The notes beneath the pieces were generated by a model. That model saw only the letters and a program-made list of their open reading frames with translations, was not told the DNA's origin and searched no databases. Of a stretch of DNA of 16,160 bases, positions 1 through 16,160 are shown in pieces. The translations under genes and the position numbers were made by a program. The DNA comes from a virus. Lineage: Duplodnaviria; Heunggongvirae; Uroviricota; Caudoviricetes. The DNA lies in IMG/VR virus record IMGVR_UViG_2512047041_000002, positions 1 through 16,160 of that record. One strand, given 5' to 3'. How positions within the stretch are numbered: position 1 is the stretch's first letter; each line of letters begins with the position of its first letter.

Positions 1-1284
1 TTACTTCTTCGCCTCTGCAACCACTTTGCTACCCACGCCGCGGTTATTGTATTCCCACATGCGGTTGTAGTTAGTGTCATTCAGATTGCGCTGTACTTCG
101 TCGTTATCATCAACGTTGCCAGTATTACCCGCAAACGGACGATTGGAAATCACCGCATCGGCCCACGGTTTCGCCGTGTTAAAACCTTCGTTGATGGCGC
201 TATCACGGATCACTACCTGACCGTTGGTATTGGCATCAACATCCAGCGAGCGGCCCAGTTGCGCCACGCCATCACCGGAAGCATTGAAACGGCTGTTTAC
301 GGCGAGGAAACCGTAATAGATGTTAGACAGCGTAGCCGGTGCAAACACATACGCTTCTTGCTGAGTACGTGAGTTCACCACGCGGAATTCGGTATTATCG
401 AACACCACTGCGCCGCGACCAGAAACGATATCCACATCCCCTTCAATATAGCTGTTGGTCACCAGCGTACGCGGCTGACGGTTGGTTTCCAGACGGTTCT
501 GCACACCACTGTTGGTGACAAAGAAGGTATTCTGACGACCGAGAATGTTGACGTTATTGATCTGCACTTTGTCGCCATCAGTACGCAGTGCCACCGCCGG
601 ATGGTTACCCGCATCTACGCTATCACCCAGCGTGTTTTCGATGGTCAGGTTTTGCAGTTGCAGGCCATTGTTTTGTGACCAGAAGACCGCAGAGCAGAGA
701 ACACCGATACTGTCGCTGCGTTTACTCTGGCAGCTATCGTACATATACCACGCCGGTTTACCTGGCATATATTTGCCGCGCGGGTTGACGTCGTGACGCC
801 AGTCGGCAGGGCTCATGCCACCATCAAGGGAAAGCCCAATCTTCACATCAATCGGTTTTTCACCTGTACCGTACAGAGTAATTCCACCCGGAGCGGCAGG
901 GACATACACCGTTCCCTGATACTCACCAGGCATCACGGCAATATACTGGCGCTTGTTGGTACGCTTGATAATTGCCGCATCTACCGCCGCCTGAATCGTG
1001 GTATGCGTTACACCTTGAGTACCCGCCGGGCCGACAACAAAGTCAGGTTGCGCAGGCAAGGTAATTGGGGAAGGATTCCACGCTGCAGCACCTGGCGTCA
1101 GGGACGCAAAATAGTGTTGAGCATCGAAATTCTGCGCTTCTTTTGCCGACAGAATCGGGCGAGAAGAGGTACCAGGCGCGGTTTGATCAGAAGGACGTTG
1201 ATCGGGCGGTGTTGAGCTACAGGCGGTCAGCGTCACGCCAAAAGCCAATGCCAGCGCCAGACGGGAAACTGAAAATGTGTTCAC
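1..1284 (-). CDS. ybhC: YbhC lipoprotein (pectinesterase-like / acyl-CoA thioesterase family), host gene on the gal side of attλ
   Basis: 427-aa ORF with N-terminal lipoprotein signal (LALALAFGVTLTAC|SS lipobox); I recognise the sequence as E. coli YbhC; it lies directly beside the lambda att core, as in K-12. Confidence 0.88.
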   Translation of the reverse strand: MNTFSVSRLALALAFGVTLTACSSTPPDQRPSDQTAPGTSSRPILSAKEAQNFDAQHYFASLTPGAAAWNPSPITLPAQPDFVVGPAGTQGVTHTTIQAAVDAAIIKRTNKRQYIAVMPGEYQGTVYVPAAPGGITLYGTGEKPIDVKIGLSLDGGMSPADWRHDVNPRGKYMPGKPAWYMYDSCQSKRSDSIGVLCSAVFWSQNNGLQLQNLTIENTLGDSVDAGNHPAVALRTDGDKVQINNVNILGRQNTFFVTNSGVQNRLETNRQPRTLVTNSYIEGDVDIVSGRGAVVFDNTEFRVVNSRTQQEAYVFAPATLSNIYYGFLAVNSRFNASGDGVAQLGRSLDVDANTNGQVVIRDSAINEGFNTAKPWADAVISNRPFAGNTGNVDDNDEVQRNLNDTNYNRMWEYNNRGVGSKVVAEAKK

Positions 1285-1330
1285 AGGTTGCTCCGGGCTA
1301 TGAAATAGAAAAATGAATCCGTTGAAGCCT

Positions 1331-1345
1331 GCTTTTTTATACTAA
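1331..1345. other. attL core (lambda 15-bp common core O), junction of bacterial B arm and phage P' arm
   Basis: Exact GCTTTTTTATACTAA; upstream flank gaagcct matches the attB B arm, downstream gttggcattataaaaaagcattgcttatcaatttg matches the lambda attP P' arm. Confidence 0.85.
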
Positions 1346-1425
1346 GTTGGCATTATAAAAAAGCATTGCTTATCAATTTGTTGCAACGAACAGGTCACTA
1401 TCAGTCAAAATAAAATCATTATTTG
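1346..1425. promoter_or_regulatory. attL P' arm with IHF H' site and Int arm-type sites P'1-P'3
   Basis: IHF-like tATCAAtttgTTG at 1371..1383; tandem arm-type-like decamers caGGTCACTAT (1391..1401), CAGTCAAAAT (1402..1411), AAAATCATTA (1412..1421) close to consensus C/AAGTCACTAT. Confidence 0.7.
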
Positions 1426-2489
1426 ATTTCAATTTTGTCCCACTCCCTGCCTCTGTCATCACGATACTGTGATGCCATGGTGTCCGACTTATGCCCGAGA
1501 AGATGTTGAGCAAACTTATCGCTTATCTGCTTCTCATAGAGTCTTGCAGACAAACTGCGCAACTCGTGAAAGGTAGGCGGATCCCCTTCGAAGGAAAGAC
1601 CTGATGCTTTTCGTGCGCGCATAAAATACCTTGATACTGTGCCGGATGAAAGCGGTTCACGACGAGTAGATGCAATTATGGTTTCTCCGCCAAGAATCTC
1701 TTTGCATTTATCAAGTGTTTCCTTCATTGATATCCCGAGAGCATCAACATGCAATGCTGTTGGGATGGCAATTTTTACGCCTGTTTTGCTTTGCTCGACA
1801 TAAAGATATCCATCTACGATATCAGACCACTTCATTTCGCATAAATCACCAACTCGCTGCCCGGTAACAACAGCCAGTTCCATTGCAAGTCTAAGCCAAC
1901 ATGGTGATGATTCTGCTGCTTGATAAATTTTCAGGTATTCGTCAGCCGTAAGTCTTGATCTCCTTACCTCTGATTTTGCTGCGCGAGTGGCAGCGACCGG
2001 GTTTGTTGTTATATGGCCTTCAGCTATTGCCTCTCGGAATGCATCGCTCAGTGTTGATCTGATTAACTTGGCTGACGCCGCCTTGCCCTCGTCTATGTAT
2101 CCATTGAGCATTGCTGCAATTTCTTTTGTGGTGATGTCTTCAAGTGGAGCATCAGTCAGACCCCTCCTTATTGCTTTAATTTTGCTCATGTAATTTATGA
2201 GTGTCTTCTGCTTGATTCCTCTGTTGGCGAGAATTTTTTCGTAGCGATCAAGCCATGAATGTAACGTAACAGAATTATCACTGTTGATTCTCGCTGTCAG
2301 AGGCTTGTGTTTGTGTCCTGAAAATAACTCAATGTTGGCCTGTATAGCCTCAGTGATTGCTATCCTCCTGTCTCGGCCTAATCCAAACTCTTTACCCGTC
2401 CTTGGGTCCCTGTAGCAGTAATATCCATTGTTTCTTATATAAAGATTAGGGGGTAAATCCCGGCGCTCATGACTTCGCCTTCTTCCCAT
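1419..2489 (-). CDS. int: Tyrosine integrase, lambda Int (356 aa)
   Basis: Translation MGRRRSHERRDLPPNLYIRNNGYYCYRDPRTGKEF... ends ...QYRDDRGREWDKIEIK, which I recognise as lambda Int with only a few substitutions; located next to attL and overlapping xis as in lambda. Confidence 0.95.
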   Translation of the reverse strand: MGRRRSHERRDLPPNLYIRNNGYYCYRDPRTGKEFGLGRDRRIAITEAIQANIELFSGHKHKPLTARINSDNSVTLHSWLDRYEKILANRGIKQKTLINYMSKIKAIRRGLTDAPLEDITTKEIAAMLNGYIDEGKAASAKLIRSTLSDAFREAIAEGHITTNPVAATRAAKSEVRRSRLTADEYLKIYQAAESSPCWLRLAMELAVVTGQRVGDLCEMKWSDIVDGYLYVEQSKTGVKIAIPTALHVDALGISMKETLDKCKEILGGETIIASTRREPLSSGTVSRYFMRARKASGLSFEGDPPTFHELRSLSARLYEKQISDKFAQHLLGHKSDTMASQYRDDRGREWDKIEIK

Positions 2490-2685
2490 TTCTGATCCTC
2501 TTCAAAAGGCTACCTGTTACTGGTCGATTTAAGTCAACCTTTACCGCTGATTCGTGGAACAGATACTCTCTTCCATCCTTAACCGGAGGAGGGAATATCC
2601 TGCATTCGCGCACCCATCGACGAACTGTTTCAAGGCTTCTTGGGCGTCGCTGGCGTGCGTTCCACTCCTGAAGTGTCAAGTACAT
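2467..2685 (-). CDS. xis: Excisionase Xis (72 aa)
   Basis: Internal ATG at 2683..2685 gives MYLTLQEWNARQRRPRSLETVRRWVRECRIFPPPVKDGREYLFHESAVKVDLNRPVTGSLLKRIRNGKKAKS, matching lambda Xis as I recall it; the 102-aa ORF in the track is an upstream extension. Confidence 0.92.
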   Translation of the reverse strand: MYLTLQEWNARQRRPRSLETVRRWVRECRIFPPPVKDGREYLFHESAVKVDLNRPVTGSLLKRIRNGKKAKS

Positions 2686-2802
2686 CGCAAAGTCTCCGCA
2701 ATTACACGCAAGAAAAAGCCGCATTGATGCGGCGATGGTAGGTCTGGATATCATTGAGCAATGAACAGGCCTCATCGAGTGTGAGGCGGTGTTATTTCAT
2801 GG

Positions 2803-3147
2803 TTAGTCCTTGCGTAGCTCGCTGATTCTTCTGTAAGTCTCTGGTGCTTTGTTTCCGTGTATCTTCATTTCAAACTTCAACAGAGCAACGAGAGAATCCC
2901 ATTCGTTGAGGATGCCTTTGAATGCCGGAACGCGCTTTGCAACCTTGTCGAATGAATCTCTGATTTCTGGAATCTGCTCAACAAGTGCAACGCATCGCCG
3001 GAAGTCTGCTGCGTCATGTGGAGCGCCGAAGTGATGACCATAGATATTTTTTTTCAGTCCACATGCGATTGAGGCAAGAGTTGCGCTACTGATGCCGACA
3101 TCGCCAGTTGATTGCCATTTCAAAACCTTCATAGCCAAATCTGACAT
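2803..3147 (-). CDS. Hypothetical phage early-left protein (114 aa)
   Basis: ATG at 3145..3147 preceded by GGAGA Shine-Dalgarno; ORF MSDLAMKVLKWQSTGDVG...; no motif recognised. Track start at 3174 lacks an RBS. Confidence 0.6.
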   Translation of the reverse strand: MSDLAMKVLKWQSTGDVGISSATLASIACGLKKNIYGHHFGAPHDAADFRRCVALVEQIPEIRDSFDKVAKRVPAFKGILNEWDSLVALLKFEMKIHGNKAPETYRRISELRKD

Positions 3148-3173
3148 TTCTTGTCTCCAATAAAAAACCGCCA

Positions 3174-3341
3174 TCAGGCGTCTTGGTGTTCTTTCAGTTC
3201 TTCAATTCGAATATTGGTTACGTCTGCATGCGCTATCTGCGCCCATATCATCCAGTGGTTATAGCAGTCGTTGATGTCCTCTGCTTCGATAACCCTGTCG
3301 AATGGCTCTCCATTCCATTCACCTGTGACTCGGAAGTGCAT
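3174..3341 (-). CDS. Small hypothetical protein (55 aa), not in ORF track
   Basis: Hand translation of minus strand: MHFRVTGEWNGEPFDRVIEAEDINDCYNHWMIWAQIAHADVTNIRIEELKEHQDA*; GGAG Shine-Dalgarno 7 nt upstream; hydrophilic, protein-like composition, unlike the overlapping 61-aa track ORF. Confidence 0.45.
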   Translation of the reverse strand: MHFRVTGEWNGEPFDRVIEAEDINDCYNHWMIWAQIAHADVTNIRIEELKEHQDA

Positions 3342-3441
3342 TTATCATCTCCATAAAACAAAACTCGCCGTAGCGAGTTCAGATAAAAGAAATCCCCGCG
3401 AGTGCGAGGATTGTTATTCACCTTTGACGGCAAGTTGCAGG

Positions 3442-3969
3442 TTAGCCACGGTTAACCTCCTGCGGCGGTTCTGGCAGCGGCATCCAGTGGGTTACGTCAT
3501 CCAAGATATTTCCTGATAAATATGTGAAAGCTCTATATTTTTTGTAATCAATTGGACTCATTACCCAGTTCCAATATGCTGCCACTATTTGACCTTGACT
3601 AAATGCCAGTAACATTTTGGTGTCGTCCGGCATTCGCTCACTACAGCTTATCCAACCATCCGGAGTTACCGGCACTGGCTGAGCGGTATAAAGCGGTGTT
3701 ATATCTGCCCGAAAATTACATGCTTTATGCAGCCGCACCCCCCGTTCGACTTCTGCTTTGTCAGGATACATACCAGTGAACGTGTTATATTCACGGTCAA
3801 TTTGCGTGAAGGTTACCTTCCACGCCACCGGCTCTGCCTCAAGCGATGCCAGAGCAATTCGTGCCAGTTCTTCCGCTTCTTCTGCTGGCAGTACAACGTT
3901 GCTACCAGGTCTGTATGTTTCGCGCCACTGCTTGATTGTCAGCAGTCGCTCTTTGGTAATAGTGGTCAT
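3442..3969 (-). CDS. DUF551-like phage protein (175 aa)
   Basis: C-terminal PDGWISCSERMPDD...THWMPLPEPP signature that I associate with DUF551 phage proteins; ATG overlaps upstream stop (ATGA). Confidence 0.6.
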   Translation of the reverse strand: MTTITKERLLTIKQWRETYRPGSNVVLPAEEAEELARIALASLEAEPVAWKVTFTQIDREYNTFTGMYPDKAEVERGVRLHKACNFRADITPLYTAQPVPVTPDGWISCSERMPDDTKMLLAFSQGQIVAAYWNWVMSPIDYKKYRAFTYLSGNILDDVTHWMPLPEPPQEVNRG

Positions 3970-4481
3970 GCCGCGTTTCCTTCTTTCTTATTAACAATTA
4001 CACCGTCATATATTTCATTAAGGTGCCCTCTCAACTCCATGCGCCTTAATGCAGATAACATGTAATCGCATTCAACCTGCTTATTTCCAGTAAATGGCTT
4101 ATCGTCAGGATTACCCCAACAGCAATTACCCTTGGGCCATCCATGTACTTTCCGTACTCTTCCGTTAACAACGTGAAGTAATCCCCAGCCGGGAGGTAAA
4201 TCCTCAACTGAAATAATTTCCGGCTCACTAATAAAGAATCGCCAGTCGCCCATGCCAAGTGAGGGATTTTTACGGAAACGCTTTTTTCTATCTGCCAACA
4301 AGTCAGCACGAGAACACTTCGCCTCTATCAGGCATGATGCTGAATTTCTGAATCCCATAGCATCTGGCTGTTCTCCGGTACTGGTTACAGCTATAAAGCG
4401 GTCATGAAAACAGACCTTGAACCCGTTGCGCTTAAGGAACTTGTGCGCAATCTGACAGAGTTCGCTGTGTGTTAACGCCAT
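3966..4481 (-). CDS. Putative PD-(D/E)xK nuclease-fold protein (171 aa)
   Basis: Start MALTHSELCQ at 4479..4481 with AAGGAGAG Shine-Dalgarno; motif GEQPDAMGF ... CLIEAKCS resembles the PD...(D/E)xK signature; Cys-rich C-terminal region. Fold assignment is by motif only. Confidence 0.45.
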   Translation of the reverse strand: MALTHSELCQIAHKFLKRNGFKVCFHDRFIAVTSTGEQPDAMGFRNSASCLIEAKCSRADLLADRKKRFRKNPSLGMGDWRFFISEPEIISVEDLPPGWGLLHVVNGRVRKVHGWPKGNCCWGNPDDKPFTGNKQVECDYMLSALRRMELRGHLNEIYDGVIVNKKEGNAA

Positions 4482-4482
4482 A

Positions 4483-5076
4483 TCACTCTCCTTTGATGCG
4501 AATGCCAGCGGCACGGGAATCATTCCATCGCTTTACTTCTTCACGAATTACGTCAATGCATTCTTTCGAATCCATTAGGTAATCTTCATCAAAAAGACGT
4601 TCCTGTTCGTTTTCTATCGCAACAATGATTGCTTCAACTAACTTTTGTACCTGAGAACCACTTTCTAACTCTGCTATGCGCTTACTCCCATCCGAGATAA
4701 CGCCCTCGTAATACTCACGCTGCTCGTTGAGTTTTGATTTTGCCAACTCCAGTTGTTTTGTTAGTTCCGCAATACGGCAAACATCGTTGATACGCGTTTC
4801 CTCTAATGCGTTGATCTCATCCAACAATGCCAGCGCAACATTTGGATTAAAAGCAGCAATAAATTCAGCGTTTGCATAAGCCTGAACATCTGTTTCAACC
4901 AGGCAGTTAACATGACATTCTGCAATCACGCCACCGGGTTCTCCTTTCCATTTTTGGCAAACAAAAACTCCTGTTAAATTGCCGTGCTGGTTAACAGATG
5001 TATGCCCTACGATGTAGCTCCCTTTCGTTGCCTTTTCTGCCGCATCACGCAGTGCCTGATAATTAATTTCGCTCAC
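4483..5076 (-). CDS. Ead/Ea22-like early protein (197 aa, GTG start)
   Basis: GTG at 5074..5076 with GGAGGA Shine-Dalgarno, overlapping upstream stop (GTGA); MSEIN... N-terminus and ...AGIRIKGE C-terminus resemble Ea22-family proteins as I recall them. Confidence 0.55.
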   Translation of the reverse strand: MSEINYQALRDAAEKATKGSYIVGHTSVNQHGNLTGVFVCQKWKGEPGGVIAECHVNCLVETDVQAYANAEFIAAFNPNVALALLDEINALEETRINDVCRIAELTKQLELAKSKLNEQREYYEGVISDGSKRIAELESGSQVQKLVEAIIVAIENEQERLFDEDYLMDSKECIDVIREEVKRWNDSRAAGIRIKGE

Positions 5077-5297
5077 TCTTCATCCTCCAAGTCGGCAACG
5101 GCGTCCATCACATCAGAACCGCGAATAACCTCAAAAGCACGGCAGGCCATTTGAAATACCAGTTGCTCTTGCGGGTGAGGAGACTCCCAATATTTGAAGC
5201 CTGGGCGATGCGTGTACCCCATCATTGAATAAAAATCACCAGCAAGCTTAATCGCGGCATCGACAAGCTCTCTGTTAGTCATTCTTTTTCCGCTCAC
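5073..5297 (-). CDS. Hypothetical protein (74 aa, GTG start)
   Basis: GTG at 5295..5297 preceded by AAGGAGG; translationally coupled to both neighbours (4-nt overlaps). Confidence 0.5.
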   Translation of the reverse strand: MSGKRMTNRELVDAAIKLAGDFYSMMGYTHRPGFKYWESPHPQEQLVFQMACRAFEVIRGSDVMDAVADLEDEE

Positions 5298-5713
5298 TGG
5301 TTGCCTCCTTTGCGAAGCTGGGCGGCTAACTCATCACATATGTGCGTCAAAGAACAAAGTTTGATTGATGGATGTTCGCGCATCATCTCTACTCCCTGCG
5401 CCCGCACTTCAGACAGGAAAGCATCGGTGGCTGGCATATTTCCTGTTGCCTTCATTGCCTCCAAAATAACCAGAACGCCATCTCGCCCAACCACCTCAGC
5501 GATAACCTCGGTGTTGTCGCCAACAACATCGCAGAATGCCTGAACTGCCTTACGAGCCAGCGCACTCTCCGCCGCCAGCGCCGCGCACTTGGCCTCCGCT
5601 TCAGCAAATTTACGCACCAGATATTCAGCGTTTGTTTCGTTAACCTTTAAATCGCTTGGGATGCATTTACCTTTCAGGAATCCATCCATCTCAATTAGTG
5701 ACATTTGTTTCAT
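5294..5713 (-). CDS. Hypothetical protein (139 aa)
   Basis: ATG at 5711..5713 overlaps upstream stop (ATGA); part of a chain of coupled ORFs; no motif recognised. Confidence 0.55.
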
Positions 5714-5874
5714 TTCTTCCCACTCCGCAACATCGCATTCAGATATTTGTTTTGATTCACTGACGGAAAAGAATTTCTCTTTAGCAATTCCTCTCTCGAT
5801 GGCATTGGCTTTACGCGCTGGCGAATAATCATTTCTGCCGGAAGAATGCCGGGGTTGTATGCAAGTCCTCTCAT
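5710..5874 (-). CDS. Small hypothetical protein (54 aa)
   Basis: ATG at 5872..5874 preceded by GAGGA that overlaps the TGA stop of the upstream gene; the longer 101-aa track ORF overlaps the 5885..6181 gene and lacks an RBS. Confidence 0.4.
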
Positions 5875-5884
5875 GGTAAATTCC

Positions 5885-6181
5885 TCAGTCATTACTGATA
5901 GCGCCATAGCGTGATCGATAATTACGCAGCCGCGGGTCGATATATTCAGGGAAGTGGGTATATGTGGCTTTGCGGAATGGTCGGATTGATGTTTCGTTTG
6001 TTCGGTCCTTCTCATTTTTTAACGCGAGTTGTATATCGCGTCGGTACATCCGTTCTGCTTTTGTTTCTGGTGGCAGATCGATAAACGTGTCGAAAATGTT
6101 TTTGATATTTTCCAGCACCTCCGCCTTGGAGCTACCGGAGCAATTGCGCGGGTCATCCGCACCATACAGAGGCGCTGGCAT
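5885..6181 (-). CDS. Hypothetical protein (98 aa)
   Basis: ATG at 6179..6181, weak AAGG Shine-Dalgarno; fits the operon spacing. Confidence 0.5.
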
Positions 6182-6204
6182 AATGGGAGCCTTATTTTCA
6201 GTAA

Positions 6205-6792
6205 TCAGAAAGCAGGGTAATCGTTCTTGCTGTAACCATAATCATCTGCATGATTCTGGCTTACGTTTTTAGAGCGATTGTCTTTATCTTTGAGATTGGC
6301 AACCATGTTGGCGATAGTTTCTGGTTGCTTGCCTTCTGCCTTTTCTTTAAGGGTTTGACCTGTTTGTGCAATAAACGGGATGCGTATTTCCATCTGGTAG
6401 TTGTCTGCGCCAGTCTTTTTGTTTGTGGTTAATACTTTCTGGAGCACTAACCCGATTTTCTTTCCATGAAATTCAGGTGCAACAAATTTACTGGCGGAAA
6501 CCATATGCTGCGTTAATTGTCCAATCCCGGCACACCCCATCATGGCGTGAACGACATTTGCGCCAAATTTGTTTTCCGTTCCGTCATTTTTCTGAACACA
6601 GACGCTAAGATATTGGATTTTACGTCCGTCGTCGGATTCTCCAGAAAACTCAATAAATTTGGCTCCTTTTTCTGATTGCTTTAGTTCTGCTTCAGTAATG
6701 GTAATGATATGGGCGCCAGTTTCGTTAATAAAACCACCTTGCCCTGCGGTCAGTGCTGCTTCTTCGTTATAAGTAAAAATCACGTTGCTCAT
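6205..6792 (-). CDS. Sak4-partner protein (195 aa), possibly ssDNA-binding (DUF669-like); not a canonical SSB
   Basis: Directly downstream of and overlapping (ATGA) the Sak4-like ATPase gene; Lys-rich acidic C-terminal tail ending DYPAF; the family name is from memory and uncertain. Confidence 0.5.
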   Translation of the reverse strand: MSNVIFTYNEEAALTAGQGGFINETGAHIITITEAELKQSEKGAKFIEFSGESDDGRKIQYLSVCVQKNDGTENKFGANVVHAMMGCAGIGQLTQHMVSASKFVAPEFHGKKIGLVLQKVLTTNKKTGADNYQMEIRIPFIAQTGQTLKEKAEGKQPETIANMVANLKDKDNRSKNVSQNHADDYGYSKNDYPAF

Positions 6793-7469
6793 GCGGCGTT
6801 TTCCTTAATTTGATGAACATTATTGATGCCGTAGTAATCACAAACAGTGGCATCGACGAAAGAGAGATCGTTATCAATCTCATTGGAATCAAACATTCCC
6901 ATTGGGGATTTGACAGTGTCTGCACCGTTGTTTTTCGTGGTGAAAAAGAACTGGTCATCGCGGGTAAGAGTGCGAAGAACTATAGTAAACATGCCTTCGA
7001 CAGTGATTTTCTCGTCCAGCATTTTGCCGATAGTTTTCATTTTCACGCGCCCCATAGGGGTTTCTTCGGTATGTGCAAGAAAATAGACTCTCAGGTCATC
7101 AGGTGCATCCTGTGCAGCCTTAATCACCTCCCATGCGTGGCGGCCTATCTCAGTAAATTTATCAAACGATTTTTCTTCTGAGCGGCGCATAAACTCATTG
7201 CTCATCACATACTGGAAGTCATCAACAATAACGATTCTTTTTCCGTATTCGTGAGCACGCTTAATTACAGCAACTATTACGTCCCATTTGTCAGTGGTAA
7301 CTACGGTTCCTTTTTTTGCTCTGGCATCCCATGCAAGCCAGTCTTTTGATTTAAATGGTAGCGGCTTGCCTATTGGTTTTATAAGTATTGCTTCCTCTGG
7401 ATTGATATTTCTCATGCTGGTTGATTTTCCGGTGCCAGATTCACCGAGTATTAATGTCGCAGTTCCCAT
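6789..7469 (-). CDS. Sak4-type RecA-like core ATPase (226 aa), phage recombination/annealing protein
   Basis: Walker A GESGTGKST near N-terminus, Walker B-like RIVIVDDF, and a size typical of Sak4; occupies the position of lambda Red genes. Confidence 0.7.
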   Translation of the reverse strand: MGTATLILGESGTGKSTSMRNINPEEAILIKPIGKPLPFKSKDWLAWDARAKKGTVVTTDKWDVIVAVIKRAHEYGKRIVIVDDFQYVMSNEFMRRSEEKSFDKFTEIGRHAWEVIKAAQDAPDDLRVYFLAHTEETPMGRVKMKTIGKMLDEKITVEGMFTIVLRTLTRDDQFFFTTKNNGADTVKSPMGMFDSNEIDNDLSFVDATVCDYYGINNVHQIKENAA

Positions 7470-7477
7470 AATTTGCC

Positions 7478-7666
7478 TCAGAATGGTAATTCGGATGGGC
7501 AGGAAAGAAATTCGCGCTCATTCATGCGCTCTCTTTGCGCCTGCCATAAACAAAGTTGTTTCTTTGATTTATCTCCCGCTTTACGCCAGTAACGAGCCTC
7601 AGCAATGTGATATTCTCTTTTTAATCGACTTAACTCTGGAGTTTTCGCCAGTTCTACCGGAATCAT
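7478..7666 (-). CDS. Hypothetical protein (62 aa)
   Basis: ATG at 7664..7666 with GGAGG Shine-Dalgarno, overlapping the Kil-like stop (ATGA); basic, Arg/Lys-rich. Confidence 0.5.
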   Translation of the reverse strand: MIPVELAKTPELSRLKREYHIAEARYWRKAGDKSKKQLCLWQAQRERMNEREFLSCPSELPF

Positions 7667-7776
7667 TTTGACCTCCATTTTCTGTAGGCTTCTACGGCTT
7701 CACGAAACATCTTTTCATCGCCAATAAAAGTGGCGATAGTGAATTTAGTCTGGATAGCCATAAGTGTTTTATCCAT
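7663..7776 (-). CDS. Kil-like small protein (37 aa)
   Basis: MDKTLMAIQTKFTIATFIGDEKMFREAVEAYRKWRSK resembles lambda Kil as I recall it; position immediately downstream of cIII, overlapping its 3' end, matches lambda gene order. Confidence 0.5.
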   Translation of the reverse strand: MDKTLMAIQTKFTIATFIGDEKMFREAVEAYRKWRSK

Positions 7777-7909
7777 TTTTGGGAACTCCTGGCTGATTAA
7801 GTATGTCGATAAGGCGTTTCCATCCATCACGTAATTTACGTGTGATTCGTTCAAGTAAAGATTCGGAAGGGCAGCCAGCAACAGGCCACCCTGCAATGGC
7901 ATATTGCAT
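7769..7909 (-). CDS. cIII: CIII (46 aa; shorter than the 54-aa lambda protein)
   Basis: ATG at 7907..7909 with AGGAG Shine-Dalgarno; MQYAIAGWPVAGCPSESLLERITRKLRDGWKRLIDILNQPGVPKNG* matches lambda CIII as I recall it up to PKNG, then stops. Confidence 0.85.
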   Translation of the reverse strand: MQYAIAGWPVAGCPSESLLERITRKLRDGWKRLIDILNQPGVPKNG

Positions 7910-7970
7910 GGTGTGCTCCTTATTTATACATAACGAAAAACGCCTCGAGTGAAGCGTTATTGGTATGCAT

Positions 7971-7996
7971 ATAAAAAGGCCCTCACACTGGAGGGC
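7971..7996 (-). terminator. Intrinsic terminator-like hairpin upstream of cIII (tL1-like position)
   Basis: On the minus strand GCCCTC-cagtgt-GAGGGC (6-bp GC stem) followed by CTTTTTAT. Confidence 0.5.
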
Positions 7997-8261
7997 AAAG
8001 AAGATTTCCAATAATCAGAACAAGTCGGCTCCTGTTTAGTTACGAGCGACATTGCTCCGTGTATTCACTCGTTGGAATGAATACACAGTGCTTCTCTGTG
8101 CTAAATAATTAAATCATATTCTGATTTGGTTAGTTTATACGCACCTCCTCTGGTGTAATATGCAAATCTGTCTTTGCTTCCATCAGAATTGTATACCCAC
8201 CCACCAAATGGAAAGATAGTGAACCGCCCCGGGTTTCCTGGAGAGTGTTTTATCTGTGAAC

Positions 8262-9152
8262 TCAGGCTGCCAGATCATCGTTTCCGATGGAAGCATAATA
8301 AGCTTTTTCTGCTTCTGCCGGAGGAGTATGGCCCAGCCTTTCCAGCAATCGTCGATTGTTATACCAGTCCACCCACGTGAGTGTGGCCAGTTCCACTTCT
8401 GCACGGTTTTTCCAGCTCTTACGGTGTATTACCTCCGCTTTGTAAAGACCATTGATGCTCTCCGCCATCGCGTTGTCATACGAGTCGCCTGTACTTCCTG
8501 TTGATGCCAGTAATCCGGCTTCCTTAAGCCGCTGTGTGTAGGCCAGCGATACATACTGAGAACCTTTATCACTGTGATGGACCGTGCCGGACGGTCGACG
8601 GGCCCATAACGCCTGCTCCAGTGCATCCAGCACGAATGTCGTTTCCATGGACGATGAGACCCGCCACCCCACGATGTATCCGGCAAACACATCAATGATG
8701 AACGCCACATAGACGAAGCCCCGCCATGTGCTGACGTAAGTAAAATCAGCCACCCACAGCTGGTCAGGTCGTTCTGCCACGAACTGACGGTTTACGCGGT
8801 CGCCTGCGGCAACGGCTTTCCGGCTGATGGTCGTACGGACCTTTTTACCCCGGAGAACACCGGCAAGTCCCATAACCGCCATGAGACGTGCCACAGTGCA
8901 TCTGGCCACTCTGATACCTTCCCGTAACAACTGACGCCAGACTTTACGCACACCGTATACCTTGTGATTTTCATCGTATACGCGCTGTATCTCTTTCTTC
9001 AGCCAGTCATCGCGCTGCGCACGGGCACTGCGTTTATCCGGATGATGTCGCTGTTGCTGACAGTGGTAATACGTTGACGGGGCAATATGCAGTTCGCTGC
9101 ATAGCGGTCCGACCCCGTACTGCTCACGCAGCTTATCCAGCAGTGGCATCAT
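8262..9152 (-). CDS. IS629-like transposase OrfB (296 aa, DDE catalytic domain)
   Basis: IS3-family OrfB-like sequence (…[31 protein letters not shown]…[11 protein letters not shown]…) in the -1 frame relative to orfA. Confidence 0.85.
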
Positions 9153-9475
9153 TTTTTCCAGAGGCGGTCGAACTCCGCCTTCGCAAAATAAGCGGAAGCC
9201 TGGCGAAGGATATCGTTACTGCGGCGCAGTTCACGATTTTCACGTTCCAGCTCTTTCAGACGCTGACGTTCAGCGGTGGTGAGCCCTCCATCACCGCCCC
9301 CGGTATCCCGCTCATGCTGGCGAACCCAGACACGCAGAGTCTCCGGCGTACAGCCAATCTTTGGAGCAATGGAACAAATTGTCGCCCATTGTGAGTCATA
9401 TTCGCCCTGACTTTCCAGAACCATACGGACTGCCCGTTGACGGACTTCGGGGGAAAAACGAGTATTTTTAGTCAT
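9149..9475 (-). CDS. IS629-like transposase OrfA (108 aa, HTH)
   Basis: [30 protein letters not shown]... with C-terminal leucine-zipper-like region; ends in an A6 run (GGAAAAAATGA) at the orfA/orfB overlap. Confidence 0.85.
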
Positions 9476-9622
9476 CCTGTTTACCTCTTTCTCAGGAAGT
9501 TTAGTCTCCAGGATTCCCGGGGCGGTTCATCTCCAGAACTTGGCAGGATTACAAGTTCATACGGAGAACTTGCACGAGCAGCAACAAAGCCACTTCGATA
9601 TGTTGAACAGACAGGGCGATCT

Positions 9623-10030
9623 ATGCCAGCCATTAGCACTCTTGAGAATGGCCTTCATCCAGTTTTAGAGAGCGCATTGTCTGGCGCTTTTAGAACTACT
9701 GGCACTATCGCAGGGTTCTCTGGAGGAGGCGTTATTGGAGCAATAGCGGGTGGCGCTGCAGGTGGGGCAATTGATGCAATGGCAAAAGGAGCGATAGCGA
9801 AATTATCCGCAACTAGAAGCGGTCGTTACGCTATTGAAAAGGCTGTTCAAGAGGCAACAAAGGCAGTTAAGGTTGGGGCAAGTGATGGCGCATTAGCGGC
9901 GGCGGAACGCAGATTTATGGCAAATAAGGCCGCCGTAAAAGCAATACGCGAGGCACTAGGAAACGAAGAGTTCCAGCGTTTAGCAAGAGCTGGAATTGTG
10001 GCATCGCTAAGCGGAATGGCACAGGAGTAA
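9623..10030 (+). CDS. Glycine-zipper protein (135 aa), possible membrane-active/bacteriocin-like; 5' end may be truncated by the IS
   Basis: TIAGFSGGGVIGAIAGGAAGGAIDAMAKGAI GxxxG-repeat segment followed by Ala/Lys-rich amphipathic helices; weak RBS at the first ATG and the frame stays open back to the IS boundary. Confidence 0.4.
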   Translation: MPAISTLENGLHPVLESALSGAFRTTGTIAGFSGGGVIGAIAGGAAGGAIDAMAKGAIAKLSATRSGRYAIEKAVQEATKAVKVGASDGALAAAERRFMANKAAVKAIREALGNEEFQRLARAGIVASLSGMAQE

Positions 10031-10360
10031 TTAGTCATCCATGGATGGATTGAGCTTATCTCGTGTTGATGTGGCAATTTTCCCAACATTTTTCAACCAA
10101 GATTTTAAGAAGGATATGTCGTCCTTAATATCATGAATATCCTCATTCTTTATACGATCAACCTTATCCTCTAAGCTCTCTATAGAACGCTCAATGCTAG
10201 ACAGAGAGATTTTTAAGTCCCCTTGCTCACGTTCCAGTGAGGATTTGAGAGCACAATATTCGTTTTCTAGAATTCCTATTTTTTTTGTTAGAGAGTGCAT
10301 TCGATACTCATACACCAAACCAGAAACGACTAATGCAGCCAACAGAAACCATTCAAGCAC
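10031..10360 (-). CDS. Membrane-anchored coiled-coil protein (about 110 aa, GTG start)
   Basis: GTG at 10358..10360 preceded by AAGGAGG; N-terminal hydrophobic helix LEWFLLAALVVSGLVYEY followed by heptad-like SLEREQGDLKISLSSIERSIESLEDKVDRIK; stop abuts the convergent glycine-zipper stop (TAATTA). Confidence 0.5.
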   Translation of the reverse strand: MLEWFLLAALVVSGLVYEYRMHSLTKKIGILENEYCALKSSLEREQGDLKISLSSIERSIESLEDKVDRIKNEDIHDIKDDISFLKSWLKNVGKIATSTRDKLNPSMDD

Positions 10361-10390
10361 ACCAACCTCCTTAGTTTTGAGCAGGATACC

Positions 10391-10756
10391 ATGAAAAAAG
10401 TTAACATTGGAAACGTACCAAAGATGCTCGTTCCGCTCTTTGAGAGCGGTACAATTGTGTGTTGTAGAGACTTTCCAGAATGGCAACGCCTGCATCAAAA
10501 ACTTGGCGTTGACGTGCAGGACTCGGATGCCAACGGAGCGTCTCATACAATGAGCAGCGAGAATGGTGTTTTGCATGTGATAGGTGTGTTCAATGGCAAA
10601 CTATCTACTATTGCCCATGAGTGCGCTCACATGGCATTCGATATCTGCTCAAGGGTCGGTGTTGATGTTGAACCAGGAAGAGCCAATGAGACTTACTGCT
10701 ACTTAATGAGCAGGCTTGTTGAGTTCTGCGAGCGACATATCAAAAAGCCGGAGTGA
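10391..10756 (+). CDS. Small HExxH-motif protein (121 aa), possible ImmA/IrrE-like metallopeptidase-fold protein
   Basis: ATG at 10391 with AGGA 4 nt upstream; motif TIAHECAHMAFD (HExxH) in the C-terminal half; two Cys pairs. Assignment by motif only. Confidence 0.45.
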   Translation: MKKVNIGNVPKMLVPLFESGTIVCCRDFPEWQRLHQKLGVDVQDSDANGASHTMSSENGVLHVIGVFNGKLSTIAHECAHMAFDICSRVGVDVEPGRANETYCYLMSRLVEFCERHIKKPE

Positions 10757-10764
10757 CCCGGCTT
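10745..10764. terminator. Stem-loop between convergent genes (possible bidirectional terminator)
   Basis: AAGCCGG-agtgac-CCGGCTT overlapping the HExxH gene stop; flanked by A-run on one side and T-rich sequence on the other. Confidence 0.3.
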
Positions 10765-10769
10765 GATTA

Positions 10770-10949
10770 TTACTTTTTGCTGTCTGGAGTTCGCTTATCC
10801 AATACCCAGCCATGACCTGGCTTTGTTGTTGGTGGAAGCCTTTCGTTGTCCTTGACGGTGGCAAAATTGTCTTTCTTACCGCCGCGTGGGCCAACTTCTT
10901 GGTATATTCCGCCGTTTTTTCCTGTGTTTTCACCTGGTTTTTTCGCCAT
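10770..10949 (-). CDS. Small Gly/Lys-rich hydrophilic protein (59 aa)
   Basis: ATG at 10947..10949 with GAGGT Shine-Dalgarno; MAKKPGENTGKNGGIYQEVGPRGGKKDNFATVKDNERLPPTTKPGHGWVLDKRTPDSKK; TTGACT -35-like hexamer upstream. Confidence 0.5.
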   Translation of the reverse strand: MAKKPGENTGKNGGIYQEVGPRGGKKDNFATVKDNERLPPTTKPGHGWVLDKRTPDSKK

Positions 10950-11039
10950 GATATACCTCAACATGCACCCGTTATTGGGCGATTAAATATTGATCTCATT
11001 TTATGAGTAGTCAATATGGTCCAAAAAAGGTAAAAATTA

Positions 11040-11064
11040 ACCCACCGTCAGGTGGGTTTTTTAT
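11040..11064. terminator. Intrinsic terminator hairpin, likely bidirectional; ends the Mnt-like/ClpP-like operon
   Basis: ACCCACC-gtca-GGTGGGT followed by TTTTTTAT on the plus strand and by TTAATTTTTACC on the minus strand; 24 nt beyond the ClpP-like stop. Confidence 0.6.
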
Positions 11065-11087
11065 AAGGAGTAATCATGATTTACCCA

Positions 11088-11624
11088 TCAAACAACCCAC
11101 CAGTTTGCCTGATTGGATGCCAGCCTTGCAGTTTTTATGGAATTAATTATGCCATGCTCAAGAGCCTTGTTAGCATCCAAAATGGTCGAGTCTGCTATCA
11201 GGGATGCCCACCTAATATGGGTTCCGATGTCGATATTGAACGTCTCAACGAAGCGATCAAGATCGTTATCGAGGCATTTCCCGTACTCTCTCAATCTGGC
11301 ATGGTCGGCGGCTGGGGAGGCAAAGCACCATAATAGAGGATGTAACAGGAATCTTGATAATGGGTTTGCGAAACGTTCTGAGCCAGCCAGGAAAACGATA
11401 TTAGCTATGGATTCAACATTGCTTATGTTGTGAGTTCTAACGGTAACAGGGAGTGACTTAAGAAAGTTATACGCAGTAAAGCCAGCGGCAGTTTCCCCTC
11501 CCTGACTTGATATATGGATATTTAATTCAGTTGCGCCTTGAGATAATGCGGTGAGACAGTGGTTCTGAAGTTGCCCAACAGTGGCAGTGTTAACGGGGCA
11601 TAAGAAATGAATTGTGTGCAGCAT
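11088..11624 (-). CDS. ClpP-fold (S14-family-like) serine peptidase homologue (178 aa), non-structural context
   Basis: By-eye alignment to E. coli ClpP blocks: ISSQGGETAAGFTAYNFL vs INSPGGVITAGMSIYDTM; ESIANIVFLAGSERFANPLSRFLLHP vs [29 protein letters not shown] (Ser and His aligned); C-terminal ALEHGIINSI vs AVEYGLVDSIL. Start ATG overlaps the Mnt-like stop (TAATG). Confidence 0.6.
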   Translation of the reverse strand: MLHTIHFLCPVNTATVGQLQNHCLTALSQGATELNIHISSQGGETAAGFTAYNFLKSLPVTVRTHNISNVESIANIVFLAGSERFANPLSRFLLHPLLWCFASPAADHARLREYGKCLDNDLDRFVETFNIDIGTHIRWASLIADSTILDANKALEHGIINSIKTARLASNQANWWVV

Positions 11625-11872
11625 TATTTTTCATCCTTAGCATACATGGTCTTTAGCGTCTCAAGTAGCGCCTCTTTGAATTTATCAGCTTCTTGGTTAG
11701 CGAATCCTTCAAGTGAGCGAGAGCCATCAAGATTATCAACATGTTTTTGAAGGATAAGCACGATCTCTGAGTTCATTGATCTGCCGTTTTTATCCGCTTC
11801 TTGCTGAATGCGTTTCTTTAAATAGTCTGGAATCCTAATCCCCAATGGACTGATATCTCTTGCACCTTTCAT
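11624..11872 (-). CDS. Mnt-like ribbon-helix-helix repressor (82 aa)
   Basis: ATG at 11870..11872 with GAGGAG Shine-Dalgarno; MKGARDISPLGIRIPDYLKKRIQQEADKNGRSMNSEIV... shows the RHH pattern of P22 Mnt (NGRSMNSE) plus a C-terminal extension; divergent from the Arc-like gene. Confidence 0.75.
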   Translation of the reverse strand: MKGARDISPLGIRIPDYLKKRIQQEADKNGRSMNSEIVLILQKHVDNLDGSRSLEGFANQEADKFKEALLETLKTMYAKDEK

Positions 11873-11894
11873 TTCTCCTCCTGCACGCTGTGCG

Positions 11895-11967
11895 TAGCTA
11901 CACAGTGTAGGCAAAAAATTTTTGACTTTAAATAAACACGGTGTAGTATTTAGTTATCACGGTGTAG
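11895..11967. promoter_or_regulatory. immI divergent promoter/operator region
   Basis: Perfect palindrome CTACAC-A-GTGTAG (11898..11910); two direct copies of CACGGTGTAG (11937..11946, 11958..11967) 21 bp apart; TTGACT (11922..11927) with TAGTAT 16 bp downstream as a candidate rightward promoter overlapping the repeats. Confidence 0.55.
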
Positions 11968-11981
11968 CAAGTGAGGTGGAA

Positions 11982-12122
11982 ATGAAAGTTAGAGACATCG
12001 CTCCATTAGGGATTCGTATCCCGCCAGAGATTAAAGAAAAATTGAAGGAAAAGGCTAAGGAGGAGGGCAGGTCTTTAAATTCAGAAATAGTGAAGCGTCT
12101 TATTCGCAGCCTAAAAAGTTGA
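11982..12122 (+). CDS. Arc-like ribbon-helix-helix repressor (46 aa)
   Basis: ATG at 11982 with GAGGTGG Shine-Dalgarno; [46 protein letters not shown]; the RHH strand [11 protein letters not shown] is nearly identical to the Mnt-like protein; the 66-aa track ORF is an upstream extension. Confidence 0.7.
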
Positions 12123-12170
12123 AGCCCCAACTGCTGGAACAGTCGGGGCTTCGGTATCAACAAATCAGAT
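12113..12170 (-). ncRNA. Candidate sar-like antisense RNA opposing the antirepressor RBS (hypothetical)
   Basis: Minus-strand TTGACT (reverse complement of 12200..12205) and AATAAT (12175..12180) with a 19-bp spacer; downstream a 12-bp imperfect hairpin (12121..12152) followed on the minus strand by AACTTTTTAG. Confidence 0.25.
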
Positions 12171-12183
12171 AGGAATTATTGAT

Positions 12184-13113
12184 ATGACAAGTTTAGCAAA
12201 GTCAACATTAAATTGCACTAACAGCATCACCATTTCAGACGTCAAGATTCATATGGATTCAGAGGGGCGTTACTCGCTTAATGACCTGCACAAGGCATCA
12301 GGTAAAGAGCGTCGTCATGAGCCTGCGGCGTGGCTGCGACTCGAACAAACCAATGAGTTAGTTCAAGAAATTCTAAATACACAGATGTGTGTATTTAAAA
12401 ATGGCGATAACTTTAATTCTTCAGAATCGCAGATTAAGAAGCCAATGGACTCTAAGAAGGGTCGCTACGGAGGCACCTACGTGTGCAAGGAGCTTGTTTA
12501 CTCCTACGCCATGTGGATTAGCGCAGCCTTTGCGCTGAAGGTTATCCGTGCATATGACGCAATGGTTACTGCCACACAAGAGAGGAAAGCTATTGGCGGT
12601 AAAACTTCAGTAGCTGAACGCACACCGCTACGAGATGCAGTAAACATGCTGGTAGGAAAGAAAGGACTTCGCTATGACGATGCATACAATATGGTTCATC
12701 AGCGTTTTGGTATTGACAGCATTGATGAACTTTCAATTGAACAAATCCCGCTGGCCGTAGAGTACATCCACAGGGTAGTGCTTGAAGGTGAGTTCATCGG
12801 CAAACAAGAGAAGAAAACCAACGAGCTTTCTGCAAAAGAAGCAAACAGCCTTGTATGGTTATGGGATTATGCCAACCGCTCACAGGCATTATTCCGCGAA
12901 CTGTATCCGGCATTAAAACAAATTCAATCGAACTATTCCGGCAGATGTCATGACTGCGGTTATGAGTTCTCCCGTATTATCGATATGGCGAGAGATGTTT
13001 TAATCAACCATACACGAGATGTTGATATTAATGAGCCAGACGGACCAACGAATCTTTCCGCATGGATGAGACTTAAGAATAAAGAATTACCTCCTTCAGT
13101 ACATAACTACTGA
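12184..13113 (+). CDS. Antirepressor with N-terminal KilA-N domain (309 aa), Ant-like
   Basis: Position directly after the Arc-like gene as in P22 immI; N-terminal region ([25 protein letters not shown]...[23 protein letters not shown]) resembles KilA-N; AGGA RBS. Confidence 0.65.
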
Positions 13114-13131
13114 CAGATAACCAACGCAACG

Positions 13132-13156
13132 ACCCAGCTTCGGCTGGGTTTTTTTA
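13132..13156 (+). terminator. Rho-independent terminator after the antirepressor gene
   Basis: ACCCAGC-ttcg-GCTGGGT followed by TTTTTTTAT, 19 nt after the stop codon. Confidence 0.7.
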
Positions 13157-13213
13157 TGCCCAAAATTCACCGTAGCCATGCTGCGGCGATTCCTTGTGTC
13201 TGGAGCAAATTAA

Positions 13214-15130
13214 ATGAGAGACATTACAGCCAATGTGATCGTATCGATGCCTTCGCAACTCTTCACTATGGCGCGTTCTTTTAAAGCCGTAGCTAATGGC
13301 AAAATTTATATCGGTAAAATTGACACTGATCCTGTAAATCCAGAAAACCAGATTCAGGTCTATGTGGAGAATGAAGACGGTTCTCACGTTCCTGTTTCGC
13401 AACCAATAATCATTAACGCTGCTGGATATCCTGTATATAACGGACAGATTGCCAAATTCGTTACCGTGCAAGGCCATTCTATGGCTGTTTATGATGCGTA
13501 TGGTGCGCAGCAGTTCTATTTTCCTAATGTGCTGAAGTATGACCCTGATCAACTACGGCAGCAATTAGAAGACCCAGATGGAGCGAATAAATACCCAAAA
13601 CTTCAGATAGCAAGATGGAGAGACAGTTATGATGTAAGAGGTTGGGGGGCTATTGGTGATGGTGTTCATGATGATACATCAGCTCTATCAGAATTACTTT
13701 CTGTTGCAACAGGTGGTGAAAAGATAGATGGGCGAGGGCTTACTTTTAAAGTATCAACTCTTCCAGATGTCAGTCGATTTAAAAATGCTCGTTTTTTATT
13801 TGAGAGAATACCGGGTCAGCCTCTTTTTTATGCTTCTGAAGATTTTATCCAGGGAGAGTTATTTAAAATTACAGATACACCGTGGTACAACGCCTGGACG
13901 CAGGATAAAATGTTTGTATATGACAATGTCATCTATGCGCCTTTTATGGCTGGAGACCGCCATGGTGTAAATAACCTCCATGTTGCATGGGTTCGCTCAG
14001 GAGATGACGGGAAGACCTGGACAACGCCGGAATGGCTTACAGATTTACATGAAAACTATCCCACAGTTAACTATCACTGCATGAGTATGGGGGTTGTCAG
14101 AAATCGCCTTTTTGCTGTAATTGAGACGCGGACCGTGAGAGGAAATAAACTGCAGGTTGCAGAGTTGTGGGATCGCCCAATGAGTCGCAGCCTTCGCGTT
14201 TATGGTGGTATAACGAAAGCAGCAAATCAGCAAGTCGCTTATATTCGCATTACTGATCACGGATTATTTGCTGGTGATTTTGTCAACTTCTCAAACTCTG
14301 GTGTTACAGATGTTACCGGGAATATGACGGTGACTACTGTTATTGATAAAAATACCTTTACAGTTACGACGCAAAATACCCAGGATGTGGATCAGAATAA
14401 CGAGGGTAGATACTGGAGTTTTGGCACATCATTTCACTCGTCACCATGGAGAAAAACCAGTCTTGGAACTATTCCTTCTTTTGTTGACGGAAGCACTCCT
14501 GTTACTGAGATTCACAGTTTTGCGACGATTAGCGATAACAGTTTTGCTGTTGGCTACCATAATGGTGATATTGGTCCACGCGAGCTTGGGATACTCTATT
14601 TCTCTGATGCTTTCGGTTCTCCTGGTAGCTTTGTTCGCAGACGCATACCTGCAGAATATGAGGCGAATGCATCTGAGCCATGTGTAAAATATTATGATGG
14701 CATTCTGTATCTGACGACCAGGGGGACATTAAGTACTCAACCCGGTAGTTCATTGCACAGAAGCTCTGATTTAGGTACATCATGGAATTCTCTTCGCTTC
14801 CCAAATAATGTTCATCACTCAAACCTTCCTTTTGCCAAAGTTGGCGATGAGCTGGTTATTTTTGGCAGTGAGCGCGCATTTGGTGAGTGGGAAGGAGGAG
14901 AACCTGATAACCGTTATGCAGGAAATTATCCAAGAACATTTATGACCAGAGTTAACGTCAATGAGTGGAGTCTGGATAATGTAGAGTGGGTTAATGTTAC
15001 TGATCAGATTTATCAGGGCGGAATAGTTAACTCTGCGGTTGGTGTTGGTTCAGTTTGTATCAAAGACAACTGGCTGTACTACATTTTCGGTGGGGAAGAC
15101 TTTTCTAAACCCATGGAGCATAGGGGATAA
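13214..15130 (+). CDS. Tailspike: P22-like head-binding N-terminal domain plus glycosidase-type receptor-binding domain with Asp-box (BNR) motifs; likely the 5' part of a frameshifted longer gene
   Basis: First ~115 aa ([11 protein letters not shown]...[38 protein letters not shown]...[15 protein letters not shown]...NVLKYDPDQ) closely resemble the P22 gp9 N-terminus as I recall it; [14 protein letters not shown] motif; two Asp-boxes SGDDGKTW and SSDLGTSW. Confidence 0.8.
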
Positions 15131-16160
15131 CAACAGAAAATATCCTTATGTTCACGATGGTCACCCGGCTGATTTGTATTGTTTCAGGGTGAAAATTAAA
15201 CAGGAAGAATTTGTTTCAAGGGATTTTGTCTACGGAGCCACTCCTAACAGAACGCTTCCTACTTTTATGTCGACGTCAGGCGTGAGGACGGTTCCTGTAC
15301 CCGTTGATTTCACAGATGATGTTGCCGTCCAGTCACTGACTGTCCATGCAGGTACATCAGGACAAGTTCGCGCGGAAGTCAAACTTGAGGGTAATTACGC
15401 CATTATTGCGAAGAAAGTACCGTCTGATGATGTTACCGCTCAGAGATTAATCGTTAGCGGCGGTGAAACAACGTCTTCAGCAGATGGTGCAATGATAACG
15501 TTGCATGGTTCCAGAAGCAGTACTCCACGTCGCGCGGTATATAACGCACTCGAACATCTTTTTGAGAACGGAGATGTTAAACCTTATCTTGATAATGTAA
15601 ATGCTCTTGGTGGTCCGGGAAACAGGTTCTCGATAGTTTATCTTGGCTCCAATCCTGTGGTTACCAGTGACGGAACATTAAAGACAGAGCCGGTCTCTCC
15701 TGACGAAGCATTGCTGGATGCCTGGGGTGACGTCAGGTATATCGCTTATAAATGGCTGAACGCTGTCGCTATAAAGGGGGAAGAAGGGGCGAGGATACAT
15801 CATGGTGTAATCGCGCAGCAACTTCGTGATGTTCTTATTTCTCACGGACTCATGGAAGAAGAAAGCACAACATGCCGCTATGCCTTTCTTTGCTATGACG
15901 ATTATCCCGCAGTATATGATGACGTCATTACTGGCCAAAGGGAAATGCCGCTGACTGATAATGACGGGAGCATCATTGTTGATGAGGATGATAATCCAGT
16001 GATGGTAATAGAAGACATCATTGAGCGCGTTGAAATAACGCCAGCAGGATCTAGATGGGGGGTCAGACCTGATCTCTTATTCTATATCGAGGCAGCATGG
16101 CAGCGCAGAGAAATGGATAAGATAAAAGCTAGGTTAGACTTAATAGAAGGGAAGCACTAA
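15039..16160 (+). CDS. Tailspike C-terminal region with S74-type intramolecular chaperone domain signature; probably continues 13214..15130 in another frame
   Basis: Frame open from 15027, overlapping the end of the upstream ORF; contains TSDGTLK (Ser-x4-Lys spacing as I recall for the autocleavage site of such domains) and [11 protein letters not shown] motif; track start is a TTG with no RBS, so an independent start is doubtful. Confidence 0.55.

Follow-up and report, generated by a model that had tools for sequence, protein, structure and literature searches.

We find that the open reading frame (ORF) at 13214–15130 of the window, the 16,160-nucleotide stretch of DNA analyzed here, almost certainly covers the 5′ two thirds of an endosialidase tailspike gene of siaK1 type from a CUS-3-like (P22-like, Lederbergvirus) prophage, a gene that is frameshifted and carried in a defective remnant at att-lambda. 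The identity and domain content of the gene, the frameshift, the deletion in the surrounding element, and the integration site are all direct observations. The ORF begins with ATG on the + strand and encodes 638 aa, and the initial annotation had taken it for a complete receptor-binding protein. It is truncated by a 1-nt insertion: the whole gene, with one extra T inside that shifts its frame by +1, runs from 13214 to 16160 (+ strand) and aligns with siaK1 of CUS-3 (CP000711.1) over the full length of 2946 nt at 99.3% nucleotide identity, the window copy measuring 2947 nt. Once the one T is removed, the gene encodes a protein of 981 aa that ends at 16160 and carries 13 aa substitutions relative to the CUS-3 protein ABQ88383 (98.7% aa identity). 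Taken as the sequence stands, the copy would be classed as a frameshifted allele (pseudogene) of the phage endosialidase family, to which it belongs by descent only.

Domain architecture and relatives of the tailspike

The gene itself is already known, as is the alternative location in which it is found here. The endosialidase tailspike SiaK1 of CUS-3 was reportedly characterized by Stummeyer et al. in 2006, and we rejected the notion of a novel fusion because, at the nucleotide identity given above, the window gene is that same gene. The CP000711.1 record annotates endo-alpha-sialidase activity for siaK1 with evidence IDA (direct assay) and cites PMID 16689790. A review presents this very protein as the textbook example of module exchange: the tailspikes of CUS-3, HK620, Sf6, and P22 have the N-terminal domain in common, and the CUS-3 catalytic domain is common to K1F, whose N-terminus is T7-type instead (PMC5380687). 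The literature basis of this analysis comprises PMC9659370, PMC3742443, PMC12632334, and PMC5380687.

The N-terminal ≈115 residues, which had been described as P22 gp9-like, indeed contain a P22-type head-binding (tail-attachment) domain (aa 1–113; 13214–13552, + strand). This region matches the Pfam Head_binding family (PF09008) over its full length with E 1.3e-66 and is 75% identical to residues 1–113 of P22 gp9. The same 113 residues match the solved head-binding domains of P22, Sf6, and relatives (PDB 1lkt, 2xc1, and 7sg7), with E-values of 1e-45 to 1e-49 for the P22 tailspike entries 1lkt and 2xc1. Opposite the coding region of this domain lies an antisense ORF of 132 aa with a TTG start (13154–13552, − strand), which is most likely spurious. 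The P22 gp9 endorhamnosidase and the other Lederbergvirus tailspikes (Sf6, HK620, and JEP4) share with the window protein the gene position after ant and the N-terminal head-binding domain, whose roughly 115 aa are 75% identical to those of P22 and 85% identical to those of JEP4. Past about residue 125, no meaningful similarity to P22-type tailspikes is found, and where those proteins use a right-handed beta-helix, the window protein has a beta-propeller sialidase instead.

The remainder of the ORF, all of it on the + strand, follows the layout of phage endosialidases. An endosialidase N-terminal extension domain (End_N_terminal, PF12218, E 1.6e-36) occupies aa 146–212 (13649–13849); a 14-residue motif singled out in the initial annotation corresponds to aa 145–158 and starts one residue upstream of it. 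The catalytic six-bladed beta-propeller follows at 13850–15200, assigned from PF12217 and from identity to K1F endoNF, with its last ≈30 residues out of frame. End_beta_propel (PF12217) matches aa 213–635 of the 638-aa ORF with E 2e-213; profile positions 1–340 fall in this ORF (13214–15130), and positions 332–367 fall in a second ORF (15039–16160). Inserted in the propeller is a beta-barrel (polysialic-acid binding) domain at aa 324–406 (14183–14431; End_beta_barrel, PF12195, E 9.8e-46). The two Asp-boxes, SGDDGKTW at aa 262–269 (13997–14020) and SSDLGTSW at aa 517–524 (14762–14785), align with SGDDGQTW and SRDIGQTW of K1F, respectively. The initial annotation had placed them in a sialidase-type propeller and had pointed to a different fold as the outcome that would speak against it; both fall within End_beta_propel, at the places where the crystal structure of the K1F endosialidase has its own Asp-boxes.

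Its further proposal, a comparison with endosialidase structures, gives a clear answer at the level of sequence. Residues 145–634 match K1F endoNF (PDB 1v0e and 3gvl) with E about 1e-238 and 69% identity over 483 positions. The K1F catalytic residues listed in a deep mutational scan are H350, R549, E581, R596, and R647 (PMC12632334), and all five are conserved in the window tailspike, as H250, R456, E488, R503, and R554. This agreement in domains and Asp-boxes is far beyond chance. The protein combines a P22-type head-binding domain with a sialidase-type six-bladed propeller, and the earlier endosialidase call holds by descent. That call had left room for a depolymerase acting on another capsule or O-antigen, and 13 residues do differ from the CUS-3 enzyme. 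However, the protein is 98.7% identical to an enzyme with a direct-assay record of endo-alpha-sialidase activity, its identity to K1F endoNF is 69% and all named catalytic residues are kept, and several records with the segment name a K1 host strain. We rejected a specificity other than polysialic acid on the strength of these identities and the retained catalytic residues and consider it scarcely credible.

Beyond the frameshift, the + strand encodes the two domains that complete an endosialidase tailspike, both out of frame with the start codon. The stalk (triple beta-helix, End_tail_spike) lies at 15201–15665 (PF12219, E 1.5e-78; PDB 1v0e), and the C-terminal intramolecular chaperone/auto-cleavage domain lies at 15666–16160 (PF13884, E 4.4e-11). 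This out-of-frame 3′ part matches residues 476–666 of the PDB 1v0e chain and the chaperone structure 3gw6 (E 3.8e-94), and the Ser818/Lys823 auto-cleavage dyad is intact in the frameshift-corrected protein. The window copy thus encodes both the stalk and the auto-cleaving chaperone, but neither is translated together with the propeller. Four substitutions within 7 nt (16115–16121), close to the C-terminal end of the chaperone domain, change I-E-R to M-D-K relative to both CUS-3 and ExPEC XM; they have the look of a short exchanged patch or of clustered mutation.

CUS-3 SiaK1 has the same domain order as the corrected window protein (head-binding, N-terminal extension, propeller with barrel, stalk, and chaperone) and likewise has ant upstream; the window copy differs in the extra T, which breaks the frame at codon 631, and in its aa substitutions. 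K1F endoNF (1v0e, 3gvl, and 3gw6) shares the two Asp-boxes, the catalytic H/R/E/R/R set, the stalk, and the auto-cleaving chaperone domain. Unlike the window gene, however, the K1F gene is intact and encodes a T7-type N-terminal adaptor with no P22 head-binding domain (PMC5380687).

The prophage remnant and its lambda integration module

The left end of the window carries ybhC (1–1284, − strand; Pfam Pectinesterase, with the name taken from RefSeq). To its right is an exact match to the 15-bp att-lambda core GCTTTTTTATACTAA (attL; 1331–1345, + strand), and rightward from this core, window positions 1331–1500 are identical to lambda 27724–27893, so that the P′ arm is included. The integrase gene (1419–2489, − strand) encodes a protein with 98.9% aa identity to lambda Int and 99.2% to the Int of phage JEP4, and the adjoining excisionase (Xis; 2467–2685, − strand) has 71 of 72 aa identical to lambda Xis (98.6%). 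Matches of the integrase to CUS-3 Int (24% identity over 109 aligned aa) and to P22 Int (26% over 140 aa) are weak and local. The int/xis/att module is lambda's, located at att-lambda, and is not that of CUS-3: the window element sits at ybhC–ybhB, whereas CUS-3 has an argW integrase.

The initial annotation had recognized a lambda-type module at att-lambda, which is real, and had called its pairing with a P22-type tailspike unusual, which does not stand, because the combination is already documented in three places. A second insertion site of CUS-3-like prophages has been described between pgl and bioA, with insertions of 20 to 50 kb that the authors read as decay and with elements at both sites in NMEC strain CE10 (PMC9659370). 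In Lederbergvirus JEP4, the 99.2% identical integrase adjoins the tailspike gene. In ExPEC XM, an intact 2946-nt tailspike gene is followed by an acyltransferase, att, and lambda-type int and xis in phage order. It is ordinary for lambdoid and P22-like phages to swap integration modules in this mosaic way. The pgl–bioA CUS-3-like prophages (e.g. CE10; PMC9659370) and ExPEC XM share with the window element the insertion site and the combination of an endosialidase tailspike with a lambda-type integrase. ExPEC XM differs in that its 981-aa tailspike is intact and its immunity region and ejection-protein genes are kept, whereas the window copy is frameshifted and has an insertion sequence (IS)-bounded deletion.

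The organization of the ExPEC XM region (NZ_CP025328.1, 1–20064) is an observation in its own right. The tailspike, a neuO-like acyltransferase, att, the lambda-type int, and early-left genes stand in attP order within the chromosome, and ejection-protein genes flank both sides of this stretch. The arrangement points to CUS-3-like prophages in tandem, or to rearranged ones, at about 0.84 Mb.

Past Xis, the window continues on the − strand with early-left genes through kil and cIII (names from strain N32) and then meets an IS3-family element of 1310 bp (8220–9529, − strand) with two transposase ORFs and 25-nt terminal inverted repeats that begin TGAACCGCCCCGGG. This element, which may resemble IS629/IS1203 in its length and ends, forms the junction between cIII and gene 16 and presumably mediated a deletion of roughly 25 kb of prophage. 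On its far side lies the 3′ remnant (last ≈125 codons) of a gene 16-type DNA transfer protein (9530–10030, + strand). Pairwise identity of this remnant to the C-termini of P22 and JEP4 gp16 is only about 26%, and its identity was settled by the PHROG profile (phrog_770, profile positions 539–666 of 668, E 3.8e-27) and by RefSeq, which in N32 names it "DNA transfer protein, missing N-terminus".

The immI-region genes to the right comprise two unknowns, a ClpP-like protease, an Arc/Mnt-like repressor, and the antirepressor Ant (12184–13113, + strand), identified by domain match to KilA-N and the P22AR C-terminal domain and by the N32 RefSeq annotation. Two features of this region bear mention. 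The ClpP-like serine protease gene (11088–11624, − strand; PF00574, E 2.2e-11; PHROG "head maturation protease") adjoins the Arc/Mnt-type repressor in the immI region, far from any head genes. Ant is a mosaic of KilA-N and P22AR-C in which only residues 101–309 resemble CUS-3 Ant, at about 63% identity, and the module boundary upstream of the tailspike therefore differs from that of CUS-3, while the tailspike itself is 99% identical. Between ant and the tailspike gene lies a terminator-like hairpin with a T-run (13131–13150, + strand), as in P22, where an ant terminator is annotated upstream of gene 9.

Between cIII and the tailspike, then, the window holds only the IS, the last 125 codons of gene 16, and the immI-region genes. 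Absent from the window between cIII and the end of gene 16 are N, the immunity region, replication genes, nin, Q, and lysis genes, together with terminase, portal, coat, tail hub, needle, and ejection proteins. The window element, which unlike CUS-3 lacks structural genes, thus encodes no P22-type tail or virion. The P22-type virion envisaged in the initial annotation fits the ancestor of the element but not the element itself, which has lost everything from cIII to the 3′ end of gene 16. From its gene content, the element is a prophage remnant unable to make virions, descended from a P22-like ancestor.

The same remnant lies between ybhC and ybhB in the cerebrospinal fluid (CSF) isolate N32 (NZ_CM165895.1, 6001–27507), which is 100% identical over window positions 1–14799, IS insertions apart. 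N32 carries four additional ISs, one of the IS3 family in int and three (IS1, IS600, and IS3-family) in the tailspike gene, the latter a striking pile-up in one decaying gene. In N32, a neuO-like acyltransferase gene follows the tailspike remnant and precedes ybhB. At 16160, the window breaks off with the final base of the stop codon that closes the tailspike gene after frameshift correction, and neuO, with its heptanucleotide phase-variation repeat, and attR are expected beyond.

The extra T and its consequences

The inserted base lies in a TTTT run at 15101–15104 (+ strand), where alignment shows GAC-TTTT-CT in the window and GAC-TTT-CT in CUS-3. The frame is shifted after F630, and by both the ORF reading and the CUS-3 alignment, a premature TAA stop (15128–15130, + strand) follows 8 codons past the frameshift. 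The remainder of the gene continues in the frame of ORF 15039–16160 up to the last base of the window, and that ORF encodes the last ≈35 propeller-profile positions, the stalk (PF12219), and the Peptidase_S74 chaperone domain. The segment around the run is present in 183 of 5426 complete E. coli genomes. A 76-nt query centered on the run is 98.7% identical, with a single gap, in every one of the 183, and none of them matches the four-T query at 100%. An exact 36-mer with the four-T run found no match in the viral, genome-representative, and metagenome contig collections, and no gene for the 638-aa product is on record; the four-T allele is therefore private to the window sequence. The nearest relative, N32, has lost window positions 14800 onward to an IS, and position 15101 is among those absent.

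Two readings are compatible with a private allele: a recent mutation that inactivated the gene of a decaying element, or a single-base error in a homopolymer. Because the allele is private, a sequencing or assembly error in this short run is possible, in which case the 981-aa gene of the real strain would be intact, although still housed in a virion-less remnant. The complete lack of the allele among the 183 genomes and the contig collections points in that direction, as do the lack of any record of the truncated 638-aa protein and the state of the gene, whose frame is open to 16160 except for the extra T and whose catalytic and chaperone-dyad residues are intact. On the other hand, a run of four Ts is a weak error hotspot, and a private inactivating mutation is just what a decaying gene shows; the element is decaying, with an IS-mediated deletion in the window and four more IS insertions in the N32 sister copy. 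In addition, 10 of the 15 nucleotide differences that set the window apart from both CUS-3 and ExPEC XM are non-synonymous, which, in a comparison of three sequences only, fits relaxed selection. We regard an error as a distinct possibility, but one that falls short of an even chance. The visible decay of the element and the shortness of the run favor a real mutation, which is the likelier origin of the extra T.

We also considered whether the run could act as a site of programmed or tolerated +1 ribosomal frameshifting, which would yield full-length endosialidase at a controlled low level together with a truncated form. If tRNA-Phe slipped by +1 on UUU_U, moving between the two overlapping UUU codons, the CUS-3 frame (...DFLNPW...) would be recovered without an aa change. 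No relative has the slip site, however, and in all 183 other copies a single frame encodes the protein; the zero frame past the run offers neither a rare codon nor a stop codon, a stimulatory element was not found, and the prophage element has no tail on which the product could be used. Such a site is extremely improbable on this sequence evidence.

With the extra T taken as a mutation, its effect can be framed in terms of what is known from CUS-3 and K1F. In the intact 981-aa protein, the N-terminal head-binding domain would dock the trimer on a P22-type tail, the propeller with its inserted beta-barrel, together with the stalk, would act on the K1 capsule by binding and cleaving its alpha-2,8 polysialic acid, and the C-terminal chaperone domain would drive folding and trimerization, followed by self-cleavage. 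The extra T at 15101–15104 shifts the frame after residue 630 and ends translation at 15130, so that the encoded 638-aa product keeps the catalytic residues and lacks the stalk and the chaperone domain as well as the last strands of the propeller. Such a product should not fold or trimerize. With an IS3-family element in place of everything from cIII to the 3′ end of gene 16, there is also no tail to which a spike could attach.

According to PMC12632334, the K1F tailspike needs its C-terminal domain to fold properly and, in general, does not tolerate stop codons. By analogy, the chaperone domain of the window gene would be required for folding and trimerization. The 638-aa product is probably inactive because the closing propeller strands, the stalk, and the chaperone domain are missing; activity of this fragment is very unlikely, and its loss of function would follow from the likeness to K1F. 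Overall, the gene is ordinary and, in the window, probably non-functional. A genuine extra T in an allele that is not simply dead would call for occasional UUU_U +1 slippage to give a little full-length enzyme, or for the 638-aa fragment to be made from a domesticated remnant, with either product serving the K1 host. If this were true, the product might, for example, trim or sense the polysialic acid capsule of its own host alongside the neighboring neuO O-acetyltransferase, but the chance of it is very slim.

Implications for annotation and for the host

The correct annotation of this locus is a frameshifted siaK1 pseudogene at 13214–16160, rather than a 638-aa protein, and the ORF as it stands is unsuitable as a source of recombinant depolymerase. 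Beyond annotation, the importance of the finding is small. The locus adds one more case to the reported decay of CUS-3-like prophages, in which the neuO end persists and the virion genes are lost. It also indicates that the source strain carries, or formerly carried, a K1-specific CUS-3-like prophage, and the host is therefore very probably a K1-capsulated extraintestinal E. coli.
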